Shown: positions 170 through 45,464 of the stretch, piece after piece
How positions within the stretch are numbered: the first letter of the stretch is position 1
How the letters are laid out: the number at the start of each line of letters is the position of its first letter
Source of the DNA: a virus
Lineage: Duplodnaviria; Caudoviricetes
Length of the DNA stretch: 45,564 nt
Direction: 5' to 3' (one strand)
IMG/VR virus record: IMGVR_UViG_3300043748_000006
Span: 1 to 45,564 of that record
Position numbers and translations under genes: made by a program
Notes under the pieces: model-generated
Seen by the model: the letters and a program-made list of their open reading frames with translations, nothing else
Told to the model about the DNA's origin: nothing
Database searches by the model: none

Positions 170-677
170 CACCGAAATCAATACCTTCGAGACTGTCCAA
201 CAGCTTGTAAAACTCACGAACCTTGTCACGTGAGCTAATCGCAAACGCCGACATCGCGTCGTCATCGACCGGGATTTCCACTCGTGACGACTTGGCGAAA
301 AGCTTCCAGAGAATCAACTGACGAATCATCTTCCAAGCTTCAGCGTTAACGAAGTTGAAAGGACTCGTTTCGTTTCGAACTAGGTATTCAAGAACTTGCT
401 TCACACTCAAGTCCATGTCACCAAGTCGGACCGTGATACTTGTCGCGACAGGGGCATAGATCTTACCTGTCCGAGGCTTGTATCCAACTTCACTCAACTT
501 GCCGAGCCGGACTAGTCCGTTCAAAGCGCGTCGACTGGTCGGCTGATTCAAACCGGTAAGGTTACTCACGTCATTCACCGTGAGACCAAACACGTTCTCA
601 TCGGTGAACAAGTCCAACACACGAGTCAAGTTCTCATTAGAAGTGAGAACGTTAGACGTTTCGCTCATGGTTATCAT
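66..677 (-). CDS. Winged-helix DNA-binding protein (IclR/MarR-like N-terminal HTH)
   Basis: LTRVLDLFT...GLTVNDVSNLTGLNQPTSRRALNGLVRLGKL fits a wHTH pattern; start may be ATG 668. Confidence 0.65.
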   Translation of the reverse strand: MITMSETSNVLTSNENLTRVLDLFTDENVFGLTVNDVSNLTGLNQPTSRRALNGLVRLGKLSEVGYKPRTGKIYAPVATSITVRLGDMDLSVKQVLEYLVRNETSPFNFVNAEAWKMIRQLILWKLFAKSSRVEIPVDDDAMSAFAISSRDKVREFYKLLDSLEGIDFGDETKMVKVGAELDSMPEAFNTYQAIMGSIESSAA

Positions 678-761
678 CCTGTTGTTATCGACTCCGTTAC
701 GTCAGGTTAGTCGTTTGGTTCCGCGTATATCACTCAGGGTGACCGACTTGGTCACAGATGG

Positions 762-838
762 TGACCTGCCACCTTGACTGTCAAAGTGCAGTTTACACCC
801 TATCAATCCACTTTGCACTTTGACAAAACCGCAGGTCA
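762..838. repeat. Nested inverted repeats in a non-coding region
   Basis: TGACCTGC (762-769) / GCAGGTCA (831-838) enclosing TGTCAAAGTGCA (779-790) / TGCACTTTGACA (814-825). Confidence 0.7.
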
Positions 839-1072
839 GAGCGTTGTAAAAGTGGAAAACCTGGGGAGATAACCAATATAAGGACGAAGTCCGTTATTTG
901 TTATCCCCTCCAGAATGTCAGAGTGAAAAGAAAGACTGGCCCCGATGACCCTGTGTGCCCCTGTCGCGAGGACGATGGGCGTCAGGGATAGGCCTAGACG
1001 GGCCAGAATGGGGCATCTGACGGCCTGTCAGCCCGAGTGGCTCCATCACCCCACCTGTCGGGGCGCAGCATA

Positions 1073-1118
1073 AAGCGGCACACATTAACGCATTCGTTAA
1101 ACGTCATGTGTGCCGCTT
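1073..1118 (-). terminator. Stem-loop downstream of the small ORF 1143-1307
   Basis: AAGCGGCACACAT (1073-1085) / ATGTGTGCCGCTT (1106-1118). Confidence 0.55.
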
Positions 1119-1142
1119 AAACGTGATTTTCCACGCAGCTAA

Positions 1143-1307
1143 TCAAAAACCGATGAGCTTGTTGAGTCGATTGGCTTTCTTGTTCATACGCTTTCGTTGC
1201 TTCGGAGTCACCGACTTGTGAAGTCCGATCAGACTGGAGATGAGTTGAAGATGTTCCGTGTTGTTCTGCTTGCAGTAAACACGGTGACGGTGACTGAGAT
1301 TCATCAT
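1143..1307 (-). CDS. Small basic hypothetical protein (54 aa, below the ORF-track cutoff), paralog of 44901-45074
   Basis: Strong SD AAAGGAG; MMNLSHRHRVYCKQNNTEHLQLISSLIGLHKSVTPKQRKRMNKKANRLNKLIGF. Confidence 0.75.
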   Translation of the reverse strand: MMNLSHRHRVYCKQNNTEHLQLISSLIGLHKSVTPKQRKRMNKKANRLNKLIGF

Positions 1308-1359
1308 TGCTTACTCCTTTGATTGATCCCCTGTCGCGACTTAATCACGACAACAAGAA

Positions 1360-1387
1360 AGCCCACTTGAACTTAATCAAGTGGGCT
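1360..1387 (-). terminator. Intrinsic terminator after 1403-2299
   Basis: 11-bp stem AGCCCACTTGA/TCAAGTGGGCT, 6-nt loop, T-rich tail on the minus strand. Confidence 0.7.
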
Positions 1388-1402
1388 ATCAAGTTGCTGC
1401 GA

Positions 1403-2299
1403 TTACTTCACGAAGATCAGGTCCCACGACTTGGTCTCAATGACCTTACCGTCAGAGTTCTTGATCTCCTTGGTGAACGTGAACGGGTACTCGACACCAG
1501 CGGTGAGCTTGCTGAAGTCAGTCGTCCCACGAGAAGCGAGGAACTGAGTGGTGATCTCGGAAGAAGTAATCTTCACACCACGACCAGCGCGAGACGAGAG
1601 AGTGTTGGCAAGAGTAGTCGTGTTAACAACCTGAGTCTTCTTACCGTCCTTCTCAACCGCCTTGTAAATCTCCTCACGAACGGGAGTACCGTCCTCGTTC
1701 TTCTCATCCTTCTTCAGGATAATCATCTTCTTGTAAGAAGGCTTCTGTCCGGCAGCAACATCACCCGGACGACGCAGACCACGAGTAGTCTCAGCTTCGG
1801 GAAGAAGCTGAGACAGATCAGTACCTGCGAACTTCGAGAAGAACTCAAGCGCTTCCTTTGCCGCACGAATCTTCGCGACAGTGGTAGCCGTGTTGTCGTA
1901 AATCTTCTGAACATCCTCGACGGACGTAGCCTCGGGCTCGTACTTCTTGGCAACGTCCCAAGCCTTGCTCAGAAGCTTCTCGATCTCATCCTTCTTCTTC
2001 TCAATCTCGGCCTCAATCTTCTTGATTTCGAGACCAACCTTCTCAAGGAACTTGTCGTTCCCCGGGTTACGCTCAATGATCTCGCTGATAACAAGCTTCT
2101 CGTCCTTTGCGTCAGCAGAGAAGTCACGAATCAGCTTGACATCAGCGTTGTGTCCGTCAATCAGCTCAGTGATCTCGACAACGGCCTTAAGCGCCATGCC
2201 GTCCAGCTTGGCAATTCCACTCGCACGCTCCTCGGCCGTGAGCACCTTCGACTCAGTCGAGTTGGTGTTGCTGGCCTCGGTGGTCTGCGTGTCGGTCAT
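1403..2299 (-). CDS. Hypothetical coiled-coil, Lys/Glu-rich protein (298 aa)
   Basis: SD GAAAGGA before ATG 2299 (MTDTQ...); codon usage typical of highly expressed genes; heptad-like KKIEAEIEKKKDEIEKLL. Confidence 0.8.
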   Translation of the reverse strand: MTDTQTTEASNTNSTESKVLTAEERASGIAKLDGMALKAVVEITELIDGHNADVKLIRDFSADAKDEKLVISEIIERNPGNDKFLEKVGLEIKKIEAEIEKKKDEIEKLLSKAWDVAKKYEPEATSVEDVQKIYDNTATTVAKIRAAKEALEFFSKFAGTDLSQLLPEAETTRGLRRPGDVAAGQKPSYKKMIILKKDEKNEDGTPVREEIYKAVEKDGKKTQVVNTTTLANTLSSRAGRGVKITSSEITTQFLASRGTTDFSKLTAGVEYPFTFTKEIKNSDGKVIETKSWDLIFVK

Positions 2300-2379
2300 G
2301 ATGGTGTGTCCTTTCGGTTCGATCCCTGTTGAGAACAGTCTACACCACATCAGCTAGATATGGGCGCAGCTATCCCCTG

Positions 2380-3143
2380 TCGCGGAAAGAATTTTACGTT
2401 CCGCTTCGAGTAGATCGACAGGCTTCGACACCTATCGATCCTGTACCAGCACGACCCTGATACTAGCGCAAGTTACCAGTTAGTACTATTAATCGTAGTG
2501 TTAGAACTTAATCAAGCTATCAACTACAGCAAGCGCCACTCAGTATTACAGCTACCGTCCCCGAGTACTCGACAGTCCCTGATTGCAGCTACCTAATAAC
2601 TGTCTGACTTACACCTATGTCTTTTCTCAGGACCACAGTTGTTACCTGACTAAGTTCTAACATCACGACTTCGAACCAATCAAACGATTACGTATCTAGC
2701 ATTACCGTAGTACCGTGCTCCGGGTTTCGAAATCTAATCTGACGATATGAGTGAGTTCCTTAACAACTTGGTTCCGACCCCAGCCGGAGTTGAGAAGTAC
2801 TAACACACAGGGAGGGTCAAGGTTCGACCTGTGAGCGTTGGCTTACGAATAACAGTGACCGTTAATCGTTGAGCAATGTAATCAGGGGGAGGATCTAGAC
2901 CGATCGACTCAACCCCTGTCGCGAAACCAGATAGTTCCGTTAGTTGCCCGAACCCTCGACCGGTTAATAGGAACCGGGATAGTTCGGCGCGCAAGACACA
3001 CTATGCAATTCTTAAGGAACGTCAGCTTCGTTCAATCTAATCAACGTCTCCGGTTACGCGCAGATGCGAATTGCTTCACATCCAAAACCGCCCGGTCCGC
3101 CTTTCGATCTCCCGTGCCTTTGTTTTGTTGTTTTCTTCTGACA
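2380..3143 (-). ncRNA. Candidate large structured RNA or 5' leader
   Basis: No credible ORF; hairpin 2413-2440, long helix closed by 2493-2516/2645-2668, hairpin 2948-2987, long-range pairs 2739-2763/3012-3025; mismatches in the first two become G-U pairs on the minus strand. Confidence 0.5.
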
Positions 3144-3149
3144 CCGAGA

Positions 3150-3179
3150 ACATTACGGCCTGTCTCGCGATGTTGTCAC
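3150..3179 (-). promoter_or_regulatory. Candidate sigma70-type leftward promoter
   Basis: GTGACA (3179-3174), 18-nt spacer, TAATGT (3155-3150). Confidence 0.4.
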
Positions 3180-3227
3180 GAATTTCCAGCCGCATTTTTC
3201 GTCCATGAATCGCTTTCTGACGTTTGA

Positions 3228-3256
3228 TTTACAAACACGTCAACCGAACCTAAACT
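3228..3256 (+). promoter_or_regulatory. Candidate sigma70-type promoter giving a leaderless mRNA at ATG 3263
   Basis: TTTACA, 17-nt spacer, TAAACT, then 6 nt to ATG; no SD. Confidence 0.55.
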
Positions 3257-3262
3257 GGATGC

Positions 3263-3757
3263 ATGCATAACCCGGTAACGTATGCACTCAACATCTCTGG
3301 TACCAAACCTATCGATCTGGCGAGAGAACTTGGTCTTTCACGTCAGTATATTTCTCGTGCTGAACTCGGTTGCTTCGTCAATCTGAACGACAAACTTTTG
3401 AAATGGGTTCAGAACGTTGTCAACCGTAACGGAGAGGCTTATGTCACTCACGACAAGATTCTCAACGCTTACGACATCTTCAAGCGAAGTAAGCGAATCA
3501 ACAATCTTCACCGGCTCGGCTGGGAGATAGTCACACATGACATGCCCCCTGTCGCGAGAATGGAGAAGACTCCCGATCGATACCGAACCGAATTCATCAC
3601 GTGGCGACAGCATCACTGGGGTACTTCGTATCGTTTCGCGAAGGACTTCTGTTTTCATCCCGGCTCGATCGATGATTACGAATCGGGGAAGGTCAACAAG
3701 ATTCCTAATGATCTGATGGCCGTACTCGTCTGGATCGAAAGGAACAACGTGGGATGA
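3263..3757 (+). CDS. XRE/Cro-like HTH protein with a possible second degenerate HTH
   Basis: DLARELGLSRQYISRAELG and RFAKDFCFHPGSIDDYESG. Confidence 0.7.
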   Translation: MHNPVTYALNISGTKPIDLARELGLSRQYISRAELGCFVNLNDKLLKWVQNVVNRNGEAYVTHDKILNAYDIFKRSKRINNLHRLGWEIVTHDMPPVARMEKTPDRYRTEFITWRQHHWGTSYRFAKDFCFHPGSIDDYESGKVNKIPNDLMAVLVWIERNNVG

Positions 3758-4455
3758 CATTCGCTAATGGTGATGGGGGAGTAGGTTCAAAGTATCTCAC
3801 CGATACGGAACGAGACCTGGTCTTGTTCATTGAAAAGTTCCATACGATGGCTGGAGTTCCTCCGGAAGAAGCAGCCATGTTGGACTACATGAAGTCTCTC
3901 GGTTATAACGTCACCCCTGTCGCGATACAGAAAATGCTCGACAATCCTCTCTTCAAGAAGAGTATGGATGCCCGAGGAATTCTTATCGGATCGGATTACA
4001 AACCGGGACATCTGACAGTTCGACAGATGGCTGCTGCCCAGGTGATGACTAATCCTTCCGATCGACGTTCGGAAGGTAAGCGACTTGCAGATCTAGGTAT
4101 CACGGTTGATGAGTGGAACGGTTGGCGACAGAACAAATCCTTCAATGACTTCCTCATCGGAAAAGTCGAAAGACTCTTGGCGGACAGTGTCCACGAAGCC
4201 CATTTGGGTCTCATCAAGGGTGTTCGGAATGGAAACGTTCCAGCTATCAAGCTGCTCTACGAAATCACGAACCGTTACAACCCTGATCAGGAGAATCAGG
4301 TAAACGTTCGTCTCCTTCTGGGAAAGTTCGTTGAAGTCATCCAGAAGTACGTGAAGGACCCGGAGATTCTCGGAAACATGGCACGAGAACTTCAACAAGT
4401 CGCTTATGAAGCGGCTCCGGCACCGAGTGTTGTCCGAGGACAACTTGAAAGGTAA
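3754..4455 (+). CDS. Putative terminase small subunit / HTH protein
   Basis: HTH-like LADLGITVDEWNGWRQNKSF followed by a helical AIKLLYEITNRY segment typical of TerS; upstream of TerL. Confidence 0.55.
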   Translation: MTFANGDGGVGSKYLTDTERDLVLFIEKFHTMAGVPPEEAAMLDYMKSLGYNVTPVAIQKMLDNPLFKKSMDARGILIGSDYKPGHLTVRQMAAAQVMTNPSDRRSEGKRLADLGITVDEWNGWRQNKSFNDFLIGKVERLLADSVHEAHLGLIKGVRNGNVPAIKLLYEITNRYNPDQENQVNVRLLLGKFVEVIQKYVKDPEILGNMARELQQVAYEAAPAPSVVRGQLER

Positions 4456-4458
4456 CCA

Positions 4459-4845
4459 ATGGAATTCAAAACCGTACTCCCACCGGCATTCGGGATTGAT
4501 TCGCCTCCGAAACCGTATCCGGAAGCTAAACCAGATCGAGACGGTAACTACACCCTCGATGATAAAGATTACTCATCTGGTGACTCCTTCGGACCTGACG
4601 AACTCGATGAGATCCATTCACGATCTGATGTCGACTCTGGGCCCTTTGCGCAACACCACACGATTGGACCCGGAGGGTATCAAGCCAGCCCCGGAAACCA
4701 CATACATGATGGAGTTCGTTCTAAGAAAATTGGGGACGGGCTCGGACTGACGATTAGCGGTAGTCGTGGTGGTAATGCTGCACTTGCAAGTTTGATCTCA
4801 GCTCTTAGTCAGGTTGTCGCTTTCACGGATAACACGACTCCTTAA
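4459..4845 (+). CDS. Hypothetical virion-associated protein
   Basis: His-rich HSRSDVD...HHTIGPGGYQASPGNHIHDG motif; lies in the structural operon. Confidence 0.55.
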   Translation: MEFKTVLPPAFGIDSPPKPYPEAKPDRDGNYTLDDKDYSSGDSFGPDELDEIHSRSDVDSGPFAQHHTIGPGGYQASPGNHIHDGVRSKKIGDGLGLTISGSRGGNAALASLISALSQVVAFTDNTTP

Positions 4846-4865
4846 CCCCTGTCGCGGAGAAACTT

Positions 4866-5537
4866 ATGGGTTCGTCTACGAACGGTATGTTCAACCTTTT
4901 TAAACCAGACCTAACCGATCTGGTTGATCCGCTTCTTGATATGGGAAACAATCTCAACATTATCGATCAGCGAATCTTCGGACTCACGCAGTACCGATTC
5001 AGTACTGATGATGCTCCCGATATGACGGGAATGGAGAACGGTTGGAAGGTTTACGATACTAAGTCGGGTCGAATCAAATATTACTACTACAACCCGCTGA
5101 GTGGTAACGGTCCACAGCTTCTCAACATTCCAAAAGTTAACAACACGTACCCGTGGAACACCATCTCGCTTATTAACGGATACGTTGCGGCTGCTAGCAA
5201 TAACGGACCCAACATTATTCTAGATGCACCGGCCTGGCGCTACATGGATGGTGATAATACCCGTATTCAGCTCAAGGGCCGTATGGTTAACACGGGTGGG
5301 ATCGTTAACAATACTTCGATTCAGATAGCCGCCGATGGATCTGTTCCCAACGCGGTAGGTAACAGGTATTTCAGTATCCAACCCGGAGTCGGAGATTCGA
5401 ATCCCGAAAGTAATTCGGCGGCTCGGATTCAAGTTTCCAACACAGGTGGAGTTTATATGGTTCACTACGGAACCAGTAACACCGGATCGGTAGAAAACTA
5501 CATCTGCCTCGACGGTGTTATCTACTCAACCGTTTAG
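4866..5537 (+). CDS. Short tail fibre / receptor-binding-like protein 1
   Basis: N-terminal KPD...NNLNIID attachment-like motif and beta-rich C-terminal domain (W..ISLINGY...IQLKG). Confidence 0.55.
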   Translation: MGSSTNGMFNLFKPDLTDLVDPLLDMGNNLNIIDQRIFGLTQYRFSTDDAPDMTGMENGWKVYDTKSGRIKYYYYNPLSGNGPQLLNIPKVNNTYPWNTISLINGYVAAASNNGPNIILDAPAWRYMDGDNTRIQLKGRMVNTGGIVNNTSIQIAADGSVPNAVGNRYFSIQPGVGDSNPESNSAARIQVSNTGGVYMVHYGTSNTGSVENYICLDGVIYSTV

Positions 5538-5555
5538 CCCTGTCTCGGAGTAAAC

Positions 5556-6167
5556 ATGCCATTTCCAGCCGGACTAGTCAGAGCACTAGCAACCGACTAC
5601 ATCAACGTCGTGACCCAGTTCAACAACAACTGGGACAAAATAGATACAGCTTTCACTTCCTTGTATGGGGGAGTGTCAGTCAGTCCTTCCGTTCTTAATC
5701 CCGCTCGTGGAACCGAGTGGATTAACAAGGACGGAAAACTTATGGTCTACAACGGAACCACATGGATCGAACCTCAATCAGAAGTTTGGGGACCATGGGT
5801 TAACGTTATTACATCTGCTCCATACGTAAGTGTTCCTGATAACGTTCTCCAGATCCGACAGAGTGATTGGAAGAACGTTGAATTGAGAGGAGCTGTTCAG
5901 CTTAATGCTACGGCTGATGCGTTTCCTGATGCAGGATATCTCCTTGCTTCGTCGGGACAGTTCAATTTGGCATCTGGTTACTGTCCGGAAATGACTACCA
6001 AAACGCCGGCCGCGATGAATCGTTCTGGAACTAGTTTTGCTACCGGATTCGTTTATGCCACGATCACGGGAACGGATTCAACTCTCGCTCTCTATTTTCT
6101 TCCTCAAGGAGTGAGATCTGCCGGAAACTCCATCAACTTCGACACTCTTCGATACAAGGGCTATTAA
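5556..6167 (+). CDS. Short tail fibre / receptor-binding-like protein 2
   Basis: N-terminal NNNWDKID, then WGPW and VELRGAV; paralogous to its neighbours. Confidence 0.55.
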   Translation: MPFPAGLVRALATDYINVVTQFNNNWDKIDTAFTSLYGGVSVSPSVLNPARGTEWINKDGKLMVYNGTTWIEPQSEVWGPWVNVITSAPYVSVPDNVLQIRQSDWKNVELRGAVQLNATADAFPDAGYLLASSGQFNLASGYCPEMTTKTPAAMNRSGTSFATGFVYATITGTDSTLALYFLPQGVRSAGNSINFDTLRYKGY

Positions 6168-6892
6168 TGGCTACACAGACTCCCAATCTGGGATTCAACG
6201 TTCCAGATGATGCTTCCGCCATGCCGGACGTAACAACTTACGTCAACTCGGCGTGGGATAAGATTGAACAGACGCTAGGTTCGGCGAAGGAAGTTTCGGC
6301 TGTTCCAGATCAGGATCTCACGTACAAGAAGGGAGATCGAATCTATGTCATTCCTGGTGGAGCTGATCCCACTGGTCTTTACGTATGTATCGGTTCGGAT
6401 TCTAATTGGGGGACTTTCTTCCGACCGATCACACCTGTTTGGGGACCCTGGCGACGACCGGGCCCGACACTAAACCCGAACGCAATTCTTACTGATCCGG
6501 TTAACTATCGCATCTCAGATACGAGTACTCCGTTTCAGATACGTATCAACAACAAGGGACGTGTTGAACTTCGGGGTAGTGTTTCACGTGTTTCGGGAAC
6601 GTGGCCTGATGTTTCGGTAACTGGTTACTACTTCACTCCGTTTATTAATCTTCCTGAGTTTCTTATGCCGGGAAGTTTCAGATCTAACGGACCGAATCAT
6701 GCTAGTGCTCCGCAGATCCAGACCGCTCCATATCCAACAAACTCGAACCAGACACAGTCGCAAACGTCTCAGTGTATTTACGATTTCAACCAGCGAAGGT
6801 TTGTTCTTAGAGTCTTCACTCATAGCATCGCGACGATCCAACGGGTATTCTTCTCAGGTGGGACTTACCATCTAGGAGATATGGATTTGTAA
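6167..6892 (+). CDS. Short tail fibre / receptor-binding-like protein 3
   Basis: MATQTPNLGFNVPD...NSAWDKIE, then WGPW and VELRGSV. Confidence 0.55.
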   Translation: MATQTPNLGFNVPDDASAMPDVTTYVNSAWDKIEQTLGSAKEVSAVPDQDLTYKKGDRIYVIPGGADPTGLYVCIGSDSNWGTFFRPITPVWGPWRRPGPTLNPNAILTDPVNYRISDTSTPFQIRINNKGRVELRGSVSRVSGTWPDVSVTGYYFTPFINLPEFLMPGSFRSNGPNHASAPQIQTAPYPTNSNQTQSQTSQCIYDFNQRRFVLRVFTHSIATIQRVFFSGGTYHLGDMDL

Positions 6893-8452
6893 ATGCCACC
6901 GAAGGAACGAAAGATAGCCACTCTCACGGATGCGTTTTCCGAACTTGGAACTACGCTTCAGAGGGTGGCTATTTCACCTAATATGAACTCTTACATTCCA
7001 CACAAGAAGCAGGTGATGTTTCACTCCGCGAGAGAACAGACTCGTCTTTACATCGGTGGTAACCGATCAGGTAAGACAACTGGTGGAATCCTTGAGGATT
7101 TGTGGTGGCTTACAGGTAAGCATCCATATGTAAACACCCCTAATCCCCTGTCGCGGCCGGTTATGGGTCGTCTTGTATCCGTCGACTTCATTAACGGTAT
7201 CAAGAAGATTATTATCCCTCAGCTTAAGCAGTGGCTTCCTCCGAGTGAGCTTCTTGGTGGAACTTGGTTCTCTGCTTATTCGGAGTCGGAACGTGTTCTA
7301 TCGTTGGAGAATGGTTCTCAACTTGAGTTGATGTCATACGACCAGGATCTCGATAAGTTCGCTGGTACTTCCCGTGACTTCATCCACTTTGATGAGGAAC
7401 CACCCGAGGATATTTACACCGAATGTTTGGCACGTCTGATTGACCGTAAGGGTCGTGCCTGGATCACGATGACTCCGGTTGAAGGTATGACGTGGATGTT
7501 CGACACCGTTTATGAACCAGGAACTCTAGGTAATCCTGACATCAAGGTTGTCGAAGTCGACATGCATGAAAACCCTCATCTTGATAAAGAAACGGTTGAT
7601 AAGTTCCTTAATTCGCTGAGCGCTGACGAACGAGAAGCTCGCGGTAAGGGTAAGTTCGTCCAGATGGGCGGTCTTGTTTACAAGAAGTTCCGAGTTGAAA
7701 CTCATGTGATCCCTCAAATTCCATTCGAGGAGTTCCTCGACAGGCGTAAGTACAAGATCTACATGAGTCTGGACCATGGACTCAACAATCCAACATCAGT
7801 TCACTGGCATGCAGTTGATAATGATGGAAACGTTATCACCTTTGATGAACACTATGAGGCTGGACGAATCATTGATTATCATGCTGCTGTCATCAACGGT
7901 CGTGACGGTTCTCATGGTCGGCTGCCGGATATTCGAATTGCTGATCCGGCACTCCAGCAAAGGAATGCTGTCACTGGGACCTCGATTCAAACTGAGTACG
8001 CTATTCGTGGTATCGGGTTGGCTATGGCTAACAACGATGTGCGTACTGGTATTGCTAAGGTTTCTCAATACATAGAACCACGTGAGGATGGAACGCCTTC
8101 GTGGAGGATTACTGAGAACTGCGGTAGTCTAATTCGAGAGATTCAGCGTTACCGCTGGAAGACGTGGGCGAACAAGAAACAGCAAAACAAGAACAACGCT
8201 TATGACGAACCGCATAAGAAGGACGACCATGCAATGGATGATTGCAGGTACTTCTTCACTCTTATGCCAGAGTTGAAGCATTCACCCCCTGTCGCGGTAG
8301 CTGAACTCACGAGACTTCAAAAGGCTATGGGATCTCAGGGTGGAACGAAGGGAATGGCTGATCCTTGGATCAGACTCGATCCTAACTTTGATCCTGCTAA
8401 GCCCAAGAAGACTAGTTGGGAAACCGTTCTAGATGATGGAGAACTCTGGTGA
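6893..8452 (+). CDS. terL: Terminase large subunit
   Basis: Walker A GGNRSGKT, Walker B IHFDEEP, TMTP coupling motif, nuclease LDHG and DDHAMDDCRY motifs. Confidence 0.93.
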   Translation: MPPKERKIATLTDAFSELGTTLQRVAISPNMNSYIPHKKQVMFHSAREQTRLYIGGNRSGKTTGGILEDLWWLTGKHPYVNTPNPLSRPVMGRLVSVDFINGIKKIIIPQLKQWLPPSELLGGTWFSAYSESERVLSLENGSQLELMSYDQDLDKFAGTSRDFIHFDEEPPEDIYTECLARLIDRKGRAWITMTPVEGMTWMFDTVYEPGTLGNPDIKVVEVDMHENPHLDKETVDKFLNSLSADEREARGKGKFVQMGGLVYKKFRVETHVIPQIPFEEFLDRRKYKIYMSLDHGLNNPTSVHWHAVDNDGNVITFDEHYEAGRIIDYHAAVINGRDGSHGRLPDIRIADPALQQRNAVTGTSIQTEYAIRGIGLAMANNDVRTGIAKVSQYIEPREDGTPSWRITENCGSLIREIQRYRWKTWANKKQQNKNNAYDEPHKKDDHAMDDCRYFFTLMPELKHSPPVAVAELTRLQKAMGSQGGTKGMADPWIRLDPNFDPAKPKKTSWETVLDDGELW

Positions 8453-38110: not shown

Positions 38111-38130
38111 GGAAGCTTCGTGAACTTTCT

Positions 38131-38328: not shown

Positions 38329-38392
38329 CTTTCCCTCGCATGCTCGATATCAACATTTGAAACTTCTTTCTGGGTCAGGGACAGGTAACCCA

Positions 38393-38437
38393 CGCGACAG
38401 GGGTAGACTGTTAGATTTCTAGTCGACCCCTGTCACG
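38393..38437 (-). terminator. Imperfect stem-loop built from two opposed motif copies
   Basis: CGCGACAGGGGTAGACT ... AGTCGACCCCTGTCACG; intergenic. Confidence 0.6.
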
Positions 38438-38441
38438 GGGA

Positions 38442-38678: not shown

Positions 38679-38872
38679 CTAGGACAGCACTGCCAACCAT
38701 GACGATTGTGGAATTCAATATCGAATTCCTTGTTCTTACCACGTGGCGGATGACTCTGCGCCCAGCAATGTGTATTGTCAAACTCAACACAGAAGAAGTT
38801 TCCGTTATACACGATCTGATGTCCGTTAGGACACTTCTCGCCTTCGAGCAGCTTTCCAAGGTTTTCGTACAT
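38675..38872 (-). CDS. Small Cys/His-rich hypothetical protein
   Basis: Coupled ORF; CPNGH, FFC, HCW. Confidence 0.6.
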   Translation of the reverse strand: MYENLGKLLEGEKCPNGHQIVYNGNFFCVEFDNTHCWAQSHPPRGKNKEFDIEFHNRHGWQCCPR

Positions 38873-40866
38873 TACATGATGCTCCCGTCACGAAGAGCAG
38901 CCATAAGCGACTCAGCCACGTTGATATCTTCTTCAACGCCACCAATCATCTGTTCCTTGTGATCGATGATGTTTTCGAGCCATCCCGTAATCGTGTTCTC
39001 AACGTTAATCGTGTGAACGACCGTGTTATGCTTCGAGTTGAGTCGACGAATACGAGCCATCGCCTGGTTACGAGTAGCGGGATTCCATGGCAGATCAATC
39101 ATAACCATCTGACGTGCAAGGTCGAGGTTAAGACCGACGCCACCAACCTTGAAGTGACAGAGAACAACCTGCCACGTGTAACCGCCTCGGTTGTTATCAA
39201 CATCGAACGGCTTAAGCATCTCGGGATTAGCCTCAGCAGACTTCGAATCGAAATCAACTGCAATCATATCCCGAACATTAGACGGAGTATCGCCATCCAT
39301 GCGGATACAGGAAATCCCCTGTCGCGTAAGACGATCCTCCATCTCCTTAAGGACTTCCTTGAATTGAGAGAACATGACTACGCGATCACCTTCCGCGATA
39401 GCCTGAACTCCAAGTTCTTCGGCCTTATCCATGATGATGGATTCTTCGACGGTGCACTGATACAGAACAGCCTTCGTCTCAGGATCACGAACCTTGATAC
39501 CGGCGGGCCACGTAACCGCCTGACGAAGTCGAGTGTACATCGCGATAACAGCCGCAATATTAAGTTCAGTATCACCAGACATCAGATCAAGAGACATGTT
39601 CCTGATCTGCTCCATTGCCTGACGCTGTTCCTGATAGATGTTTCCCTCGAACTCAAGATGATGACGAATCATCACCTGTTCCGGCATCGTAACACCTGCC
39701 GACTCAGTGTTTCGCTTAACGATTCGAGTTCCCATCTGGGCAATCAGACGCTTCTCACCACCGTAGTTAAACGTCCACTTTCCATCCGCCGTCTGTCGGC
39801 AGTAGTCACCGAGATACTTAGTCAGGCTTCCGAAGTTTACGTTGTCGAGAAGGTGAAGTTGAGAGAACATGTCCTGAGGCTTATTGACGAACGACGTAGC
39901 CGTAATCGTCAGAACGTTCTGCACAGAACAGAAATCGTTGAAGTTCTCAGGTTCCTTGAAGCAAACGGAGCATCGCATGGTTCGCTTACCTGACAGAGGA
40001 TTCGCAACAACAACCTCCGGGAAGCTTCCACATGCGGAACACTTGTTGGCAGCGTAAACCAACTTCTTCACACCGAGGAAAGACTTGGTGTCGACCTCAC
40101 GCATGATGTGCGCTTCATCGCAGATTACCGTATCCACCTGCATGTTGATGAAGGCATCAACGTAATTCTCATCCTTACGCCAGGCTTCATAGTTGACGAG
40201 AAGAACAAACTCATCAACCGTTGCCATCATGCGGAAGAACTGATCACGCACAATCTTCGACATACCCTGAACAACCTGCGTCGTACGGTGTGGTGCCCAA
40301 CGCTTAATCTCACGCTCGAAATTCTTGAGAACATCCTTCGGAGCGACGACGATAATCTTCTTGGCCTCAACCATATCCATGTAGATGATGGACGTAGCAG
40401 TCTTACCAAGACCAGTCTGGTCACCGAGAATTGCACGCTTAGCAACAGCAAGACGTTCCGCACCAAAAATCTGGTGATCGTAAGCGTGTTCACGCCACGG
40501 AGCGTTGAGAGTCTTTTCGTGAATGGACTTACGCTCAGCGTCCATTCGATCGCGAATCGCCTTCTCAGACATAAAAGTCTTAAGACGACGCTCAGCGTCA
40601 GCACGTTCCTGCTCAGACTCACGAGCGGCTCGACGGATAGAAGTCTGCTTAGCCTGAAGTTCAGCCTTCTTCTTCTTGATCTCATTCATCTTCTCAAGAA
40701 GCTTGGCCTCTTCAGAAGTAAGCTCCTCCATCGAACCATAGATGTTCTCATTGAGCTTGATGGAGTCCTGAATCGCTTCATTGTGCTTTTCTACTTCAGC
40801 CTTGAGCTGAGCTTCGAGTTCATCATCGTTAGGGTCTTCAAGGTTAACGAACGGGTCATCAGTCAT
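38872..40866 (-). CDS. SNF2-family (SF2) helicase with N-terminal coiled coil
   Basis: DQTGLGKT, ICDEAH, TAT, FSQF, GGVGLNL, PWNP....QA.ARI.R. Confidence 0.92.
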   Translation of the reverse strand: MTDDPFVNLEDPNDDELEAQLKAEVEKHNEAIQDSIKLNENIYGSMEELTSEEAKLLEKMNEIKKKKAELQAKQTSIRRAARESEQERADAERRLKTFMSEKAIRDRMDAERKSIHEKTLNAPWREHAYDHQIFGAERLAVAKRAILGDQTGLGKTATSIIYMDMVEAKKIIVVAPKDVLKNFEREIKRWAPHRTTQVVQGMSKIVRDQFFRMMATVDEFVLLVNYEAWRKDENYVDAFINMQVDTVICDEAHIMREVDTKSFLGVKKLVYAANKCSACGSFPEVVVANPLSGKRTMRCSVCFKEPENFNDFCSVQNVLTITATSFVNKPQDMFSQLHLLDNVNFGSLTKYLGDYCRQTADGKWTFNYGGEKRLIAQMGTRIVKRNTESAGVTMPEQVMIRHHLEFEGNIYQEQRQAMEQIRNMSLDLMSGDTELNIAAVIAMYTRLRQAVTWPAGIKVRDPETKAVLYQCTVEESIIMDKAEELGVQAIAEGDRVVMFSQFKEVLKEMEDRLTRQGISCIRMDGDTPSNVRDMIAVDFDSKSAEANPEMLKPFDVDNNRGGYTWQVVLCHFKVGGVGLNLDLARQMVMIDLPWNPATRNQAMARIRRLNSKHNTVVHTINVENTITGWLENIIDHKEQMIGGVEEDINVAESLMAALRDGSIM

Positions 40867-40901
40867 TTCAGTTTCCCTCCCAAGTTTGATGTGACTAAGG
40901 A

Positions 40902-40938
40902 CCTAGTCGGAGTTGTAGTCTAGTCAACTCCGACTAGG
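40902..40938 (-). terminator. Intergenic stem-loop
   Basis: 14-bp perfect stem CCTAGTCGGAGTTG/CAACTCCGACTAGG. Confidence 0.7.
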
Positions 40939-40945
40939 AGTTTAG

Positions 40946-41119
40946 TTACACCAACTCGAACTTATTGATTCGAATGGTGTAGTTCGGTTCTCCGGGAATC
41001 CACGGACCAGCCGTGTAACCCTTCGACTCAAAGTAAGACTTCGTTTCGGCGTAACTCTTTCCGTCGACCTTCTTACGGAAACAGAAGCCCATCGGAGTAC
41101 GTGCGATGAAGTATCCCAT
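40946..41119 (-). CDS. Small hypothetical protein (57 aa, not in the ORF track)
   Basis: SD AGGAG; MGYFIARTPMGFCFRKKVDGKSYAETKSYFESKGYTAGPWIPGEPNYTIRINKFELV. Confidence 0.65.
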   Translation of the reverse strand: MGYFIARTPMGFCFRKKVDGKSYAETKSYFESKGYTAGPWIPGEPNYTIRINKFELV

Positions 41120-41135
41120 ACTAGTTGCCTATCTC

Positions 41136-41333
41136 CTAGTTGGATTCTTCGAGCCACACGAGAGCTTCGCCACACTTAACATGGATGCCATCCATGAAAG
41201 CTGCCCAAACCTTGGGGGAGAAGCTGAAGTTGTACGTGGTTTCGACCACTGCGACGACATCAGTCATGGTGTCGCAGTCGAACGAGAGAGTGCCAGTCTC
41301 ACGCTCAGATTCCACGAAATTCACGGTCAGCAT
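41136..41333 (-). CDS. Hypothetical protein
   Basis: SD AAGGA; 65 aa. Confidence 0.65.
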   Translation of the reverse strand: MLTVNFVESERETGTLSFDCDTMTDVVAVVETTYNFSFSPKVWAAFMDGIHVKCGEALVWLEESN

Positions 41334-41390
41334 AAGGGTTACCGTCCTTATTTGCTGTTGTGGTTGGATGCACTCTATTGAGTTATTGTA

Positions 41391-41612
41391 CTACGGAAGG
41401 TCCAAGATTTCACTATGTCTCTTGTAACCTTGTTCAATCTCTTCGTTGAGTTCGTCTAGTTCTTTTGATAGAACTGCTATCTCATCAACCAAACGTTTTC
41501 GTCTATCAAAGAGAAAGTCTGTTAGCTGTTGGTGCTCAAGGATCAACTGTTGTGTTTCAGGAGTGTACTCGTCGAACTTTCTAAGATCCATCTTTCTTTT
41601 CCCAGACGCCAC
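41391..41612 (-). CDS. Hypothetical coiled-coil protein
   Basis: LVDEIAVLSKELDELNEEIEQ. Confidence 0.6.
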   Translation of the reverse strand: MASGKRKMDLRKFDEYTPETQQLILEHQQLTDFLFDRRKRLVDEIAVLSKELDELNEEIEQGYKRHSEILDLP

Positions 41613-41631
41613 CGCTGAATGCGGCTTACAA

Positions 41632-41668
41632 CCGGCTCGACCAGTACGCAGTTTTCCAGTCGAGCCGG
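41632..41668 (-). terminator. Intergenic stem-loop
   Basis: CCGGCTCGAC/GTCGAGCCGG. Confidence 0.55.
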
Positions 41669-41681
41669 AAGTAAGTCACAC

Positions 41682-41930
41682 TTAACGCATGCGCTTCTTC
41701 AAATCTCTCACATGGTCAATGATCCACCACTTAATCATGATGAGCGTATCAACCGGCCAGAAGATTCCGAGAGTCACACAGAATGACTTGTACGTCATGT
41801 ACTTCGACAACTGACTACGGTCAAAAACCTTCTTCGACTTCTCATCTTTCATCTCTCGGAAATAGACAGCCATTCCGAGACAGGCGTAGATGAAGATTAA
41901 GAGTAGGGCAATGACTACGTCGCTCTGCAT
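41682..41930 (-). CDS. Small membrane protein
   Basis: Two hydrophobic segments, with a FWP motif. Confidence 0.7.
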   Translation of the reverse strand: MQSDVVIALLLIFIYACLGMAVYFREMKDEKSKKVFDRSQLSKYMTYKSFCVTLGIFWPVDTLIMIKWWIIDHVRDLKKRMR

Positions 41931-42175
41931 CAGCTGAGCCAGTAACCCGCCTCGGAAGAGTTCAGCGACCAGTCTTCCGGCATAACCTCTTCATACGTCT
42001 TCATGAAGTCAATAACCGGCTGCTGAACGTCACACTCCCTAAGAATGTTTGCGATGTCCGCAGCATCCATCTTGTAGTAGACATCCTCATCAGGCTCAGC
42101 CTCTGCCAGGTTCAGGCCAAGCATAATGCTTACGTGCATGAAGGCTTCGATGTCGTTGTTGTAGAAGTCAGACAT
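41930..42175 (-). CDS. Acidic hypothetical protein
   Basis: SD AAGGAG; 81 aa. Confidence 0.7.
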   Translation of the reverse strand: MSDFYNNDIEAFMHVSIMLGLNLAEAEPDEDVYYKMDAADIANILRECDVQQPVIDFMKTYEEVMPEDWSLNSSEAGYWLS

Positions 42176-42189
42176 TTCATTTCTCCTTG

Positions 42190-42672
42190 TTAGATGCTGC
42201 CGTGGAAACCATGTGCGGAAAACTTATCCGCGACAGGGGTAGTAGTCTTAGGTTCGACCAGGATACGACCGCCGAACTCTTCGAACTTGAACATAGCCAA
42301 CTTGGCGTCAACTTCGTGAGGTCCGTCGTACATCAGATCAGGTTCACCTTCATATGAAAGGTAGAACATGAACATCTGTGAACGTACTTCAATGTCTGTC
42401 CTGAATACATCAGGCGGATCGAGACGTTCAACAACACATGCTCCGCCACGTTGAAGATTAGCGAGAGCATCATTCATCTGGCTCGATCGGATCTCAGGAA
42501 TGATCGCACGCATGAGACGAATAGCTAGAACAAAAGGTCGACCCGTCTTAACAGTCGTACCCTTGTTGGCGTTGAGATTAGTAACCGTCAACGTCACCAA
42601 GTCATTCGACAAATCGAACTTCTTACTGAGAGTCGGTGGCAAATCCCATGACGACGAATTAGGTTCGGTCAT
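42190..42672 (-). CDS. Hypothetical protein
   Basis: Likely start ATG 42672 (MTEPNSS), which minimises overlap with the upstream ORF. Confidence 0.65.
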   Translation of the reverse strand: MTEPNSSSWDLPPTLSKKFDLSNDLVTLTVTNLNANKGTTVKTGRPFVLAIRLMRAIIPEIRSSQMNDALANLQRGGACVVERLDPPDVFRTDIEVRSQMFMFYLSYEGEPDLMYDGPHEVDAKLAMFKFEEFGGRILVEPKTTTPVADKFSAHGFHGSI

Positions 42673-42823
42673 AAACAATACCGTACCCCATGAAGACCAT
42701 GGCCGGATACTCGTAACCATCAGGCGCATACTTCACACCTGCGAAGTTACGACGACCCTTAATCGTTCCGCGTCGGAGGCGAAGAACGAAGTAGTTACGT
42801 CGTCGATTAGCCCTTGGCGTCAA
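42659..42823 (-). CDS. Small Arg-rich hypothetical protein (54 aa, not in the ORF track)
   Basis: GGAG upstream of TTG; TPRANRRRNYFVLRLRRGTIKGRRNFAGVKYAPDGYEYPAMVFMGYGIVYDRT fills the gap. Confidence 0.5.
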   Translation of the reverse strand: MTPRANRRRNYFVLRLRRGTIKGRRNFAGVKYAPDGYEYPAMVFMGYGIVYDRT

Positions 42824-43013
42824 GACGATCCAACTCCCTAGTCATCACATTCATGATGTGCAACAGATCCTGACATGCGGGACATGTAGCTTCGTGACAG
42901 TCGTCACAAGTGATGGAGATAAACTTGTTCTCCATGTCCAACAGGAATTCTCGGAATTGATTCCTCGCGACAGGGGAGTAGCTATCGAGTCGCATCAACT
43001 CGTTAATCATCAT
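42807..43013 (-). CDS. Small zinc-binding hypothetical protein
   Basis: CDDCHEATCPAC. Confidence 0.65.
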   Translation of the reverse strand: MMINELMRLDSYSPVARNQFREFLLDMENKFISITCDDCHEATCPACQDLLHIMNVMTRELDRLDAKG

Positions 43014-43138
43014 TCGTCGTCATCCTCAGGTCCGTCATAGTAATCCGGCGCACCATCATCGGGCTCGAAGTAGTCTTCACCCCTGTCGCGCTCAAGGTAA
43101 TCGATGATGGGTTGTTCTTCATTGAACGGATTAGACAT
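43010..43138 (-). CDS. Very acidic micro-protein (42 aa, not in the ORF track)
   Basis: MSNPFNEEQPIIDYLERDRGEDYFEPDDGAPDYYDGPEDDDE; SD AAGGAG; coupled at both ends. Confidence 0.65.
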   Translation of the reverse strand: MSNPFNEEQPIIDYLERDRGEDYFEPDDGAPDYYDGPEDDDE

Positions 43139-43370
43139 CATTCGTCATCTCCTTAATGGTCTTCGTAATTAGTGTTGAATGAAGCTTCTTCCAATCTCGG
43201 ATCAAACGATATACATAAGATTCCGTGAGTTGTAGATCACGTGCAATCTGAACCGGCTTAGTTCCTCGTTCAAATTCTCGAACAATGATTCCTGGAAGCT
43301 GCTCTTCAAGTTGAATTACCGATGGCCGAAGCATAACGGCTTCCTTATAGGAATAAGGAATGTCAGCCAT
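43131..43370 (-). CDS. Small HTH protein
   Basis: GTKPVQIARDLQLTESYVYRLI. Confidence 0.7.
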   Translation of the reverse strand: MADIPYSYKEAVMLRPSVIQLEEQLPGIIVREFERGTKPVQIARDLQLTESYVYRLIRDWKKLHSTLITKTIKEMTNDV

Positions 43371-43638
43371 TGTTTCCCCTGTCGCGATTGATAAGCTTGT
43401 CGGCCTTTTCGAGAACGCTTTGCGGAATCACCAGGTCCTCATCCTTACCCGGTGCTTCTTCAACAGAGTATTTACGTTCGTCGTGTCGTCCTCGCTGAAG
43501 TTGCTTACAAAGACGCTCGGCGTGTTCGAGACTCTGCGTCATGGTCGGTCGACCCATCTTACGTCCGTCCGGGAATTCAGCGATACCTTCGACGTGACGC
43601 TTACCATAGTTGTCGACGTAGACAACGATGTAACCCAT
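43363..43638 (-). CDS. Hypothetical protein
   Basis: SD GGGAGGG; 91 aa. Confidence 0.7.
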   Translation of the reverse strand: MGYIVVYVDNYGKRHVEGIAEFPDGRKMGRPTMTQSLEHAERLCKQLQRGRHDERKYSVEEAPGKDEDLVIPQSVLEKADKLINRDRGNNG

Positions 43639-44033: not shown

Positions 44034-44246
44034 TTACTCCGCGACAGGGGTAATGTATTCACGTAGTACATCGAGCGTCTTTGTTACGTCATGCATCATG
44101 ATGTTGTATGAGTTGCCCACAGCACAGATTTGATTTGGCTTACTGCACTGTGGGCAGATCTTCTTGTGTTCGTTTCTTGCTTCTTCGAGAATGATGTCAG
44201 ACATCAACAAGTATTCTCGAAGTTGTTCGTACTTACTTTGTTGCAC
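44034..44246 (-). CDS. Small Zn-binding hypothetical protein
   Basis: H...CPQC.....C.VG. Confidence 0.65.
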   Translation of the reverse strand: MQQSKYEQLREYLLMSDIILEEARNEHKKICPQCSKPNQICAVGNSYNIMMHDVTKTLDVLREYITPVAE

Positions 44247-44436
44247 TGTGAGCCTTGACGAAAGCCTTCGCGTGATTGTTCAGCGAGTCCAACATGGCAG
44301 ACACGTCAGCCTTACTGGCTCGAACGTTTCGCATCAATTCAATCGACCGTGCCATCTGACGAATCGTGTCCTGCATACCGGCCGGAAGCTTCATGAACTC
44401 CGACATCTCGGTTTCGGAAAGCTTAGGTGTCATCAC
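44233..44436 (-). CDS. Hypothetical helical protein
   Basis: 67 aa coupled ORF. Confidence 0.65.
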   Translation of the reverse strand: MMTPKLSETEMSEFMKLPAGMQDTIRQMARSIELMRNVRASKADVSAMLDSLNNHAKAFVKAHSATK

Positions 44437-44546
44437 TTACTCCAATCCTCGAACGTACGAAGTGCGAACCTGGCTCGATCGTATCGACTGTGAAGTCTGA
44501 AGCCGATATCAACCACTAAGACTGTGACGAGTGTTGCGAGAAACAT
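44433..44546 (-). CDS. Micro-protein with a hydrophobic N-terminus (37 aa)
   Basis: SD GGAG fused to the 11-mer; MFLATLVTVLVVDIGFRLHSRYDRARFALRTFEDWSK. Confidence 0.5.
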   Translation of the reverse strand: MFLATLVTVLVVDIGFRLHSRYDRARFALRTFEDWSK

Positions 44547-44566
44547 GATTCACTCCGCGACAGGGG

Positions 44567-44740
44567 TTAGCCATAGATGAGAAATGGACCGAGCTCGTTG
44601 TTTACCCATGCGTAGATGTCACCGGTGTCATCGATGTAACACCACTGCGTGACATCTTCGTACGTGTACTCAACGACGTTGTAGTGAAAGAACTCAATGA
44701 CATGAGTCGGAAGATTACTTACATCTTGCATCTGTCCCAT
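44567..44740 (-). CDS. Small acidic hypothetical protein (57 aa)
   Basis: ATG 44740 just after the upstream stop; C-terminal part of track ORF 44567-44875. Confidence 0.6.
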   Translation of the reverse strand: MGQMQDVSNLPTHVIEFFHYNVVEYTYEDVTQWCYIDDTGDIYAWVNNELGPFLIYG

Positions 44741-44741
44741 G

Positions 44742-44900
44742 TCACGAGTCCTGACTACGCCACGCGTCAATGTCTGATTGCGTTTCACGATCAACCGGCT
44801 CGTTCTTGCATCGGCCTTCACAGATTTCCACGCGCAGCTCATAAGCCGTTTCGAGTTCGGCACCGCACGCGGCACACTTCTTAACGTTCTCGTCAGTCAT
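44742..44900 (-). CDS. Small zinc-finger protein (52 aa, not in the ORF track)
   Basis: MTDENVKKCAACGAELETAYELRVEICEGRCKNEPVDRETQSDIDAWRSQDS. Confidence 0.6.
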   Translation of the reverse strand: MTDENVKKCAACGAELETAYELRVEICEGRCKNEPVDRETQSDIDAWRSQDS

Positions 44901-45074
44901 TTAGTTTCCGATCACGAGTCGCTTGAATTCCAGGTTGGACTTCTTACGCATGCGCTTCATCTGCTTCGGAGTGAAGTACTCCGTACCGACTACTCGATTA
45001 GTCGTCTTGGTCATCCACTTGAACTCGGTGTTGTTCTGTCGAAGGTAGTTGTCGAATCGAGTAGCGGGCGCCAT
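44901..45074 (-). CDS. Small basic protein (57 aa), paralog of 1143-1307
   Basis: SD AAGGAG; MAPATRFDNYLRQNNTEFKWMTKTTNRVVGTEYFTPKQMKRMRKKSNLEFKRLVIGN. Confidence 0.75.
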   Translation of the reverse strand: MAPATRFDNYLRQNNTEFKWMTKTTNRVVGTEYFTPKQMKRMRKKSNLEFKRLVIGN

Positions 45075-45084
45075 TTGTTTCTCC

Positions 45085-45267
45085 TTAGTCGGGAACTTTC
45101 CAGTACTTACACTTCTCGCACCACTTGGGCTTTACCGTTCCGTCATCTGTCTCGTAAAGAAACGGAACGTCTGCCTCATCTTCCTTTCTTACCTGAGACC
45201 AACATATACATTCGTCAACTCGCGGGTCATCCTGACAATAAAAACAGATGACACTAATCAGCGTCAC
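45085..45267 (-). CDS. Small Cys-rich hypothetical protein
   Basis: CFYC, CIC, CEKC; SD GGAGG fused to the 11-mer. Confidence 0.6.
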   Translation of the reverse strand: MTLISVICFYCQDDPRVDECICWSQVRKEDEADVPFLYETDDGTVKPKWCEKCKYWKVPD

Positions 45268-45464
45268 TTGTCCTCCGCGACAGGGGTTGTCTGCTCATTC
45301 AGGAAGCCGAGCCACTTGTCATAGACTTCGTCGTTCTGAATGTAGTTCGATACTTCAAAGACACCGGTCAGGATGTCGCGTCCGTCTTGATCGAGCTGGT
45401 TGTACATGTTCTTGAGACGTTCGAGCATCTTTTCGTCATCGGCTCGATCTGGATAAATGTTCAT
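45264..45464 (-). CDS. Hypothetical protein
   Basis: 66 aa; coupled to the stop of 66-677 across the circular junction. Confidence 0.7.
   Translation of the reverse strand: MNIYPDRADDEKMLERLKNMYNQLDQDGRDILTGVFEVSNYIQNDEVYDKWLGFLNEQTTPVAEDK

Follow-up and report, generated by a model that had tools for sequence, protein, structure and literature searches.

The genome of a tailed phage (IMG/VR record IMGVR_UViG_3300043748_000006, class Caudoviricetes; "the window" is the whole stretch of 45,564 nucleotides that we analyzed) contains 45 exact copies of an 11-bp word, CCCCTGTCGCG. We think that this word is the template start signal for the phage's own primase-helicase, which is encoded at 31364-33232; judging from sequence comparisons and predicted folds, we put the probability at roughly 80%. 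Phages with the same type of primase have words of this kind and a sister group without the primase domain does not, which makes a start signal for the primase the likely explanation. Primases are usually thought to read about three bases, which is too short to leave an imprint on a genome. Here the likely primase site has 11 bases and is written into coding sequence at a cost in amino acids. Phages without the primase domain do not have it, and from one lineage to another it has been rewritten throughout the genome in concert. Published work is cited below by PubMed Central number, from excerpts of each paper.

The word and its imprint on the genome

The exact copies (28 on the + strand and 17 on the - strand) span 444-45286, while dinucleotide shuffles of the window contain 0.02 on average and at most 1. 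If up to one mismatch is allowed, there are 54 copies (shuffle mean 0.51), so there are 9 near-matches beside the 45 exact copies. Our recount gives the same figures as the original prediction, which was made by a model from the sequence alone. The word is the top-ranked k-mer of the window at every k from 7 to 12, and its density is 988 per Mb. The sites are:

+ strand, exact CCCCTGTCGCG (n=28, whole set spans 958..43386), starts: 958, 1328, 2374, 2913, 3546, 3914, 4846, 7145, 8286, 11059, 15054, 16075, 16486, 19206, 21444, 21600, 22973, 25004, 25448, 26038, 29822, 30828, 31453, 33303, 36257, 39316, 43080, 43376
Minus (-) strand, exact CCCCTGTCGCG (n=17, span 444..45286), lowest coordinates: 444, 8654, 13796, 17461, 19213, 21307, 22270, 25473, 26072, 31412, 37354, 38393, 42229, 42966, 44040, 44556, 45276
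+ strand, one mismatch: 10465, 12756, 27684, 35048, 38427
Minus (-) strand, one mismatch: 1874, 21538, 22141, 23932
19206..19223, both strands: double site, an 18-bp palindrome in which two copies of CCCCTGTCGCG overlap head-to-head, one per strand

Most copies (36 of 45) lie within genes; if we resample the genes with synonymous codons, we find 0.13 on average and at most 3 (500 runs). The intragenic copies are read in five frames: PVA (19) and PLSR (3) in the sense direction and ATG (8), RQG (5), and RDRG (1) in the antisense direction. The examples of these frames that were pointed out originally (3546, 7145, 13796, 8654, and 43376, and the ARQG copy in the polymerase gene at 29822) are all correct. 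The tripeptide PVA occurs 23 times in the window's proteome against 3.2 expected, and 20 of these are encoded by CCTGTCGCG (codon-usage probability 0.014); for ATG, 4.3 occurrences are expected and 13 are found, 11 of which are encoded by GCGACAGGG. So the word leaves an imprint on the phage's proteome, and the target of selection is the DNA rather than a peptide, as had been proposed. The original prediction also noticed that the word uses the codons GCG-ACA-GGG in the capsid gene, which otherwise mostly uses different ones, and codon counts bear this out: GCG is used for 2 of 28 alanines, ACA for 1 of 36 threonines, and GGG for 2 of 36 glycines.

Both orientations are used within genes (22 sense and 14 antisense, P = 0.24). 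Positions 2, 4-7, and 10 of the word have no single-mismatch variants in the window. The statement that there is about one copy per kb holds as a mean only, as the gaps among all 45 copies are no more even than random (P = 0.25).

A family of words that follows the primase

Judging from the counts of related words, CCCCTGTCGCG is one of several dialects of a signal that the family shares, [C/G]TGT[A/C/G][G/A]. The original prediction suggested looking for a lineage-specific dominant k-mer in related phages, and the relatives do each have their own top word on a CTGT core. This is CTGTGG in the Arthrobacter phages Jasmine (101/16) and Adat (90/15), CTGTAAAGG in Microbacterium phage Shocker (38/0.0), CTGTCG in Cellulosimicrobium phage DS1 (116/28), and CCTGTAGG in a Manatee Spring phage; CCTGTAG and CTGTAGCC turned up in loci that were fetched by capsid. 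G006, which has the closest primase among the genomes we fetched (59% over the N-terminus), has the same 11-mer, with 32 copies, and also a head-to-head double site, but in another gene. G007 (primase 48%) uses CCCCTGTAGC. GTGTGG is the top word in Pseudomonas phage PMBT14 (74/16.5) and Gordonia phage GTE2 (86/25.5), which are siphoviruses that have only replication genes in common with the window; Strzyga has CCTGTG (65/24). Across these sequences, then, the word follows the primase between virion types and hosts.

The TGT is invariant in the family, the 3' arm is specific to each lineage, and the 5' side is pyrimidine-rich in the window's clade. At the core, the window's word has GTC, its relatives have GTA or GTG, and the words of Jasmine, PMBT14, and GTE2 all include GTGG. 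For a broader survey, we took 74 sequences with a full homologue of the window's primase and asked which of the 64 NTGTNN words, 12 of which are family-type, was best. A family-type word ([CG]TGT[ACG][GA]) was best in 65 of the 74, with a log-likelihood ratio (LLR) of at least 8 in 50.

Natural loss of the primase domain

Two genomes (G001 and the complete G002) are capsid relatives of the window that lack the word, and what they have of the primase-helicase is confined to its helicase half. None of the 16 CTGT-NN words is as prominent in them as in the word-bearing genomes (largest 30/18). They retain TerS, TerL, portal, capsid, the helix-turn-helix (HTH) gene HTH3 (at 3263 in the window), WhiB, Sak4, the PD-(D/E)XK nuclease, and the SNF2 helicase. 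Among the genes that are common to word-bearing genomes, only the primase domain, the family A DNA polymerase (PolA), and the exonuclease are absent. A separate primase family had no match in the 59 of their 96 open reading frames (ORFs) that were scanned, and a direct search with the G002 helicase for further phages of this kind returned only itself.

As a wider control, we used two baits from outside replication, whose alignments contained both types of phage, to fetch 239 loci. Of the 189 loci of at least 9 kb, 80 encode the full primase, with the archaeo-eukaryotic primase (AEP) domain, the helix-bundle domain (HBD), and the helicase, and 17, which lack PolA, have an ORF for the helicase alone whose upstream context is present. 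The contrast excludes 87 loci without any part of the gene (because of short flanks or another module) and 5 that are partial or cut by a contig end. After de-duplication at 90%, the best family word had an LLR of 9-91 in the full-primase phages (n=44) and of 3-7 in the helicase-only phages (n=8), two ranges that do not overlap. The helicase-only phages are the sister clade of the window, G006, and G007 (96/88). The presence of the word depends on the presence of the primase in these 44 and 8 phages, in a comparison that contains a single loss and is confounded with PolA.

The members of the helicase-only clade are G001 (L104-L105), G002 (L101-L103), L133, L134, L136, L138, L139, L226, L296, and L304. 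With no PolA or primase domain detected, these podoviruses would have to borrow priming and polymerase from their hosts. G002 has a winged HTH gene (L101:16631-17401) with a weak match to replication initiators, and BLASTP found no similarity between the window's winged HTH protein (66-677) and the similarly placed gene of G002.

The primase-helicase as the candidate reader

The genes and domains of the replication module are:

31364..33232, - strand: primase-helicase, 622 amino acids, likely reader of the word (PHROG primase/helicase matches, structure model)
32615..33205, - strand: AEP catalytic domain, residues 10-206 (structural matches, catalytic motifs)
32285..32623, - strand: helix-bundle domain, residues 204-316, predicted template-recognition module (structural ranking)
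31478..32266, - strand: SF4 helicase domain, residues 323-585 (RSF1010 RepA match; AAA_25 and DnaB_C)
29207..30580, - strand: PolA, which would extend primers; holds the CCCCTGTCGCG at 29822, which is common to G006
30754..31392, - strand: separate 3'-5' exonuclease of the split polymerase; holds the CCCCTGTCGCG at 30828, which is in the other dialect in G007

The full-length model of the 31364-33232 product has a pLDDT of 83, and Foldseek matches it to RepB' (3h20, E = 5e-10) and also to DnaB. The AEP domain resembles the S-2L PrimPol (6zp9; Z = 19.5, root-mean-square deviation [rmsd] 2.5, 173 residues aligned) and RepB' (3h20; Z = 16.0, rmsd 2.9, 171 aligned). The catalytic motifs of AEP primases are I (DhD/E), II (sxH), and III (hD/E) (PMC11724360), and these are intact: E101-x-D103, H133, and D162, plus R173. 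Among 74 aligned homologues, D162 and R173 are conserved in all 74, D103 in 72, and H133 in 71, while the first acidic position of motif I is E in 44 and D in 30.

The helix bundle, when folded alone, gives a model with a pLDDT of 92.5. Against 48,161 chains, its top three matches are the pRN1 primpol (Z = 7.6), the pRN1 HBD (7.4), and RepB' (6.6), and NrS-1 (5.1) and PriX (5.0) are at ranks 6-7. Every one of these Z scores is middling alone; the ranking is consistent. Foldseek found nothing significant for the bundle (pRN1 HBD at E = 1.8, TM 0.52), PDB sequence searches with the primase N-terminus and with a helix-bundle profile gave zero matches, and Pfam found just PriCT_1, weakly, in 2 of 58 helix bundles. 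The helicase domain matches RepA of RSF1010 (1g8y; Z = 22.0, rmsd 2.8, 228 aligned) and the families AAA_25 and DnaB_C. Overall, the protein is predicted to be a RepB'-like AEP primase, a helix bundle, and a RepA/DnaB-like helicase; in effect, the models suggest the primase and the helicase of RSF1010 fused.

Turnover, rewriting, and polarity of the sites

We compared sites between the window and G006 across 34.7 kb of aligned coding sequence, with orthologous positions identified by the 9-mer core. Of the window's 33 coding sites, 12 are common to G006 and 21 are found only in the window; another 15 are found only in G006. (The shared positions, and the 32 copies in a genome that was assembled separately, also dispose of an assembly artifact as the origin of the word.) At five orthologous sites, CCCCTGTCGCG in the window corresponds to CCCCTGTAGC (the CTGTAGC dialect) in G007, with about 0.09 expected; one of these is in the winged HTH gene and one is in the exonuclease. 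In near-identical relatives, 1 of 128 motif bases differs, as compared to 303 of 13,156 bases outside the motif. The density and the wording are maintained and most positions can change, which is what one would expect of a signal that must be met often.

We examined polarity and spacing in 18 genomes, which are related and of which 11 were picked for their strong words. A genome-wide change-point in site orientation gave P = 0.04 in G006 and 0.02 in Shocker, and it was not significant in the window or in five others. Pooled across the 18 genomes, there is a switch from - to + about 6 kb before TerL (90+/143- and then 147+/78-), with a boundary that was chosen post hoc and is partly confounded with the direction of transcription. 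The recurrence of the switch hints at an origin region at this place in the window:

455..957, no strand: site-orientation switch, weak candidate origin region; mostly - to the left and + to the right (P = 0.47 in the window alone)

We found no iteron-like repeats in 600-3300.

Evidence against a primase start signal

Several observations weigh against our explanation. The eight helicase-only phages are one clade (100/100) and so represent a single loss event, and PolA and the exonuclease disappeared together with the primase domain. The characterized AEP primases that read GTG need only 3-4 bases, so a requirement for 11 bases is an extrapolation. Also, in 43 de-duplicated primases, no residue of the helix bundle tracks the variable base of the word better than do clade markers elsewhere in the protein: the top columns are spread across the whole protein, including the helicase, which identifies them as clade markers and not a recognition code.

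Not every primase of this type comes with a strong word. The best word is not family-type in 9 of the 74 primase-bearing sequences, and all but one of these words are weak. CTGTGG is only at 48/23 in Desulfofustis, and we looked for a word-type repeat in the 49-kb Satis stretch and saw none. G009 has a full primase, yet CTGTCG is only at 68/35 and the top repeat is different. The dominant repeat of G009 (L116-L118) and L085 is a longer element with TGACCGTGGCGGAG, in about 31 copies; since it contains GTGG, it may be another dialect or an unrelated repeat.

On the + strand, even spacing is weak (P = 0.075 by the coefficient of variation and 0.022 by the largest gap), and the - strand is not evenly spaced (P = 0.36; largest gap 8.2 kb). 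Across the 18 genomes, 10 of 36 strand sets are even (P < 0.05) and 4 of 36 are clumped (P > 0.95). Spacing and polarity thus support the priming of lagging strands weakly. Finally, 9 of the 45 copies are intergenic although just 9% of the DNA is non-coding (P = 0.02), and a few copies lie immediately upstream of start codons, so some copies may have a second use. At 4846, 44040, 44556, and 45276, the final G of the word opens a GGAG, which a start codon follows within a few bases, and these sites may double as ribosome-binding sequences.

How the word might work

Our starting points are the word counts, the family of words that is found with the primase but not without it, and the predicted folds. 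From these, we infer the following steps. The helicase ring would travel along the unwound lagging-strand template until the helix bundle and the catalytic domain halt at a word. The strand on which the word is written would be the template, and the first base of a short, purine-rich primer would be an A paired with one or other of the two invariant Ts. RepB' uses dATP to begin its primer at the T of a GTG within ssiA (PMC8567376), and a similar start here would give 5'-ACAGGGG. pRN1 and NrS-1 use the helix bundle to read GTG or GTGG, and their primers start on the 5' side of this sequence (PMC8718748); a start of that kind would give 5'-AGGGG. The 3' arm of the word would be read and not copied, and PolA would then extend the primer. 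For comparison, GP55 of phage 1706 reads CCAAC (PMC12205980).

To serve lagging-strand synthesis, such a long word would need to be planted in many copies on both strands. Because chance sites for a long word are almost nil, selection would keep about one per 1.6-2.7 kb per strand wherever codons allow (the PVA, ATG, and RQG frames). Positions would turn over, and if the specificity of the reader shifted, the 3' arm would be rewritten genome-wide.

A bolder idea is a private replication language: the primase and the genome would co-evolve an 11-letter word that is about 1,100 times denser than in the host, which would confine the replisome to its own DNA. We would not bet on this, but it is worth keeping in mind. 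If it is true, then with dialects such as CTGTCGCG, CTGTAGCA, CTGTGGC, and CTGTAAAGG, related genomes and exchanged gene modules would serve poorly as templates for one another. This would be a barrier to recombination and co-infection, and the phages would supply a natural collection of primases whose long start sites are programmable.

Alternative explanations

Because the loss was a single event that also removed PolA, it traces the reader to the primase-polymerase module without singling out one of its members. No sequence specificity is known for family A polymerases. Nevertheless, PolA, the exonuclease, or the helicase (at a loading or pausing site) might read the word while the primase domain merely travels with it: PolA was lost with the primase domain in 17 of 17 helicase-only loci, and both PolA and the exonuclease were lost in G001 and G002. 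However, the helicase domain is kept in the phages that lack the word, and helix-bundle AEP primases are sequence-specific (PMC8718748, PMC8567376). We consider a reader elsewhere in the module to be unlikely.

It also seems quite unlikely that a phage HTH protein binds the double-stranded word and silences or organizes the genome, as at the stoperators of cluster A mycobacteriophages (L5 gp71). The resemblance is that there are dozens of asymmetric sites across the genome with a mild intergenic excess, some of which adjoin start codons in the early region, and that the window has four HTH-like matches (66-677, 3263-3757, TerS, and 43131-43370). But stoperators lie in promoters and short intergenic spaces, are oriented with transcription, and are bound by the repressor of a temperate phage (PMC9283540). 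The window's sites are 80% intragenic and in both orientations, without a significant preference for the sense direction. No integrase or repressor family was found among the 73 ORFs of the window that were scanned, in agreement with the original prediction as regards integrase. No HTH gene was detected by tblastn across the word-bearing genomes (diverged small genes may escape): the genes at 38442 and 43131, which had been proposed as candidate readers, are in 0 of 17 comparison genomes, and 66-677 is in 2 of 17. Conversely, HTH3 persists in G001 and G002, which lack the word.

Alternatively, the word could be a neutral scar, left in the genome by replication starts or repair by the primase and hardly maintained by selection. 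High turnover of sites would fit, and the extra conservation in near-identical relatives is weakly supported. But the sites use rare codons and alter amino acids (as with the excess of PVA), near-matches are few relative to exact copies, and orthologous sites switch dialect instead of decaying. A scar is therefore very unlikely.

The original prediction favored a self tag in the style of an uptake sequence. DNA uptake sequences, KOPS, and Chi are host signals and are strongly enriched in the host's chromosome. A host-facing tag (an uptake sequence, a KOPS or Chi mimic, or a decoy) or a signal for packaging or ejection would be in keeping with the density of the word, which is about 1,100-fold that in the genus of the likely host, and its use of both orientations and of genes does recall uptake sequences. 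However, CCCCTGTCGCG is not enriched in 21 Streptomyces genomes: it occurs 159 times in 177.5 Mb (0.9 per Mb), below the reversed-word control (414). Packaging or ejection does not fit either, as the sister phages that lack the word along with the primase domain and PolA have kept TerS, TerL, portal, and internal proteins, as well as HTH and nuclease genes, and related words are found in Pseudomonas and Gordonia siphoviruses with unrelated virions. The host-facing explanation is largely refuted, and there is very little chance that either of these is correct. Among the options that were listed originally, a phage protein as reader is probably right and a priming site is what we favor, whereas a tag for coating, packaging, or translocation and a decoy for the host are unsupported.

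Relation to known systems

Sequence-specific priming by AEP enzymes is already known; what is new is the strict 11-base form, the natural loss control, and the site-by-site rewriting. One close parallel to a primase start signal of this kind is RSF1010 (IncQ). RepB' has the same predicted AEP fold and a similar helix bundle, the nearest helicase is RepA, and RepB' reads a long specific site (PMC8567376). However, ssiA and ssiB are two 40-nt hairpin sites, each present once, and they serve leading-strand-only replication, whereas here the primase and helicase are fused and an 11-mer occurs 45 times on both strands and inside genes, with GTC replacing GTG. The flanks of these 45 dispersed sites are not conserved, and they do not form hairpins like those of ssiA and ssiB.

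NrS-1 PrimPol (which reads 5'-GTGG/GTGA-3' and 5'-TTTGGTTA-3') and ORF904 of pRN1 (5'-GTG-3') are AEP enzymes that carry a helix bundle and recognize their template (PMC8718748). In the structural ranking, their bundles come out near the top against ours, and the GTGG core recurs in the words of Jasmine, PMBT14, and GTE2. On the other hand, they are primase-polymerases with sites of 3-8 bases, and ORF904 has an SF3 helicase, while in the window the helicase is of the SF4 type, PolA is a separate protein, and the word is longer and varies by lineage. The Jasminevirus phages (Jasmine and Adat), Shocker, and DS1 have the same gene order and primase type and their own dialects, but the window belongs to another genus-level lineage and probably has a Streptomyces host. 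The word "motif" occurs 0 times in the available text of the paper that describes Jasmine (PMC5513430). Our literature search, which covered few subscription journals, found neither the word nor any genome-wide dialects of this primase family described, and only papers with titles on unrelated subjects came up for the exact 11-mer.

If our explanation is confirmed, then the primase specificity of a whole family of phages could be read from k-mer counts. Also, priming positions and the spacing of Okazaki fragments would become predictable, which could be tested in Jasmine, Adat, and Shocker, as these can be cultured. And the series of dialects would be a route to the recognition code of the helix bundle and to site-specific primase tools.

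The phage and other observations

The ends of the window are a direct repeat of 169 nt (1-169 and 45396-45564, with one mismatch), which is likely the assembly overlap of a circularized genome. The shared ends imply that the contig is complete at about 45.4 kb, and by its gene content, the window is a complete Jasminevirus-like podovirus. It encodes a portal, capsid, and adaptor of the P22/SU10 type, WhiB, the split PolA, the primase-helicase, Sak4, a PD-(D/E)XK nuclease, and an SNF2 helicase. The capsid is 40-44% identical to those of the cultured relatives (Jasmine/Adat, Shocker, and DS1). All 134 of 134 matches to the endolysin are from Streptomyces phages or Lomovskayavirus, so the host is likely a Streptomyces.

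Some loci have unusual replication genes. In L092-L097 and L099, one ORF encodes the AEP domain of the primase and another encodes the HBD and helicase, and several of these loci have only a weak word of the TGTCG(G) type. L165, which has one bait in common, encodes a D5-type primase-helicase, and its top word differs. The loci L165, L176, L179, L182, and L188 share the gene at 36530-37138 and have other over-represented words (TTAACGCA, ACTGGTCC, CAAGGTAT/CAGGGTAT, and TGAATACC). That gene (- strand) encodes a 202-amino-acid protein, which we take to be HNH-like, with invariant TGRKRAA and RHHGP...NVHRICxxCHNRxH motifs and no match in Pfam or PHROG; it is widespread, with 169 and 343 confirmed stretches. 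Finally, the gene at 12090-12335 (+ strand), amid the operon of head genes, matches anti-defense proteins of the Acb2/Tad1 type (PF24729, E = 2.7e-18).

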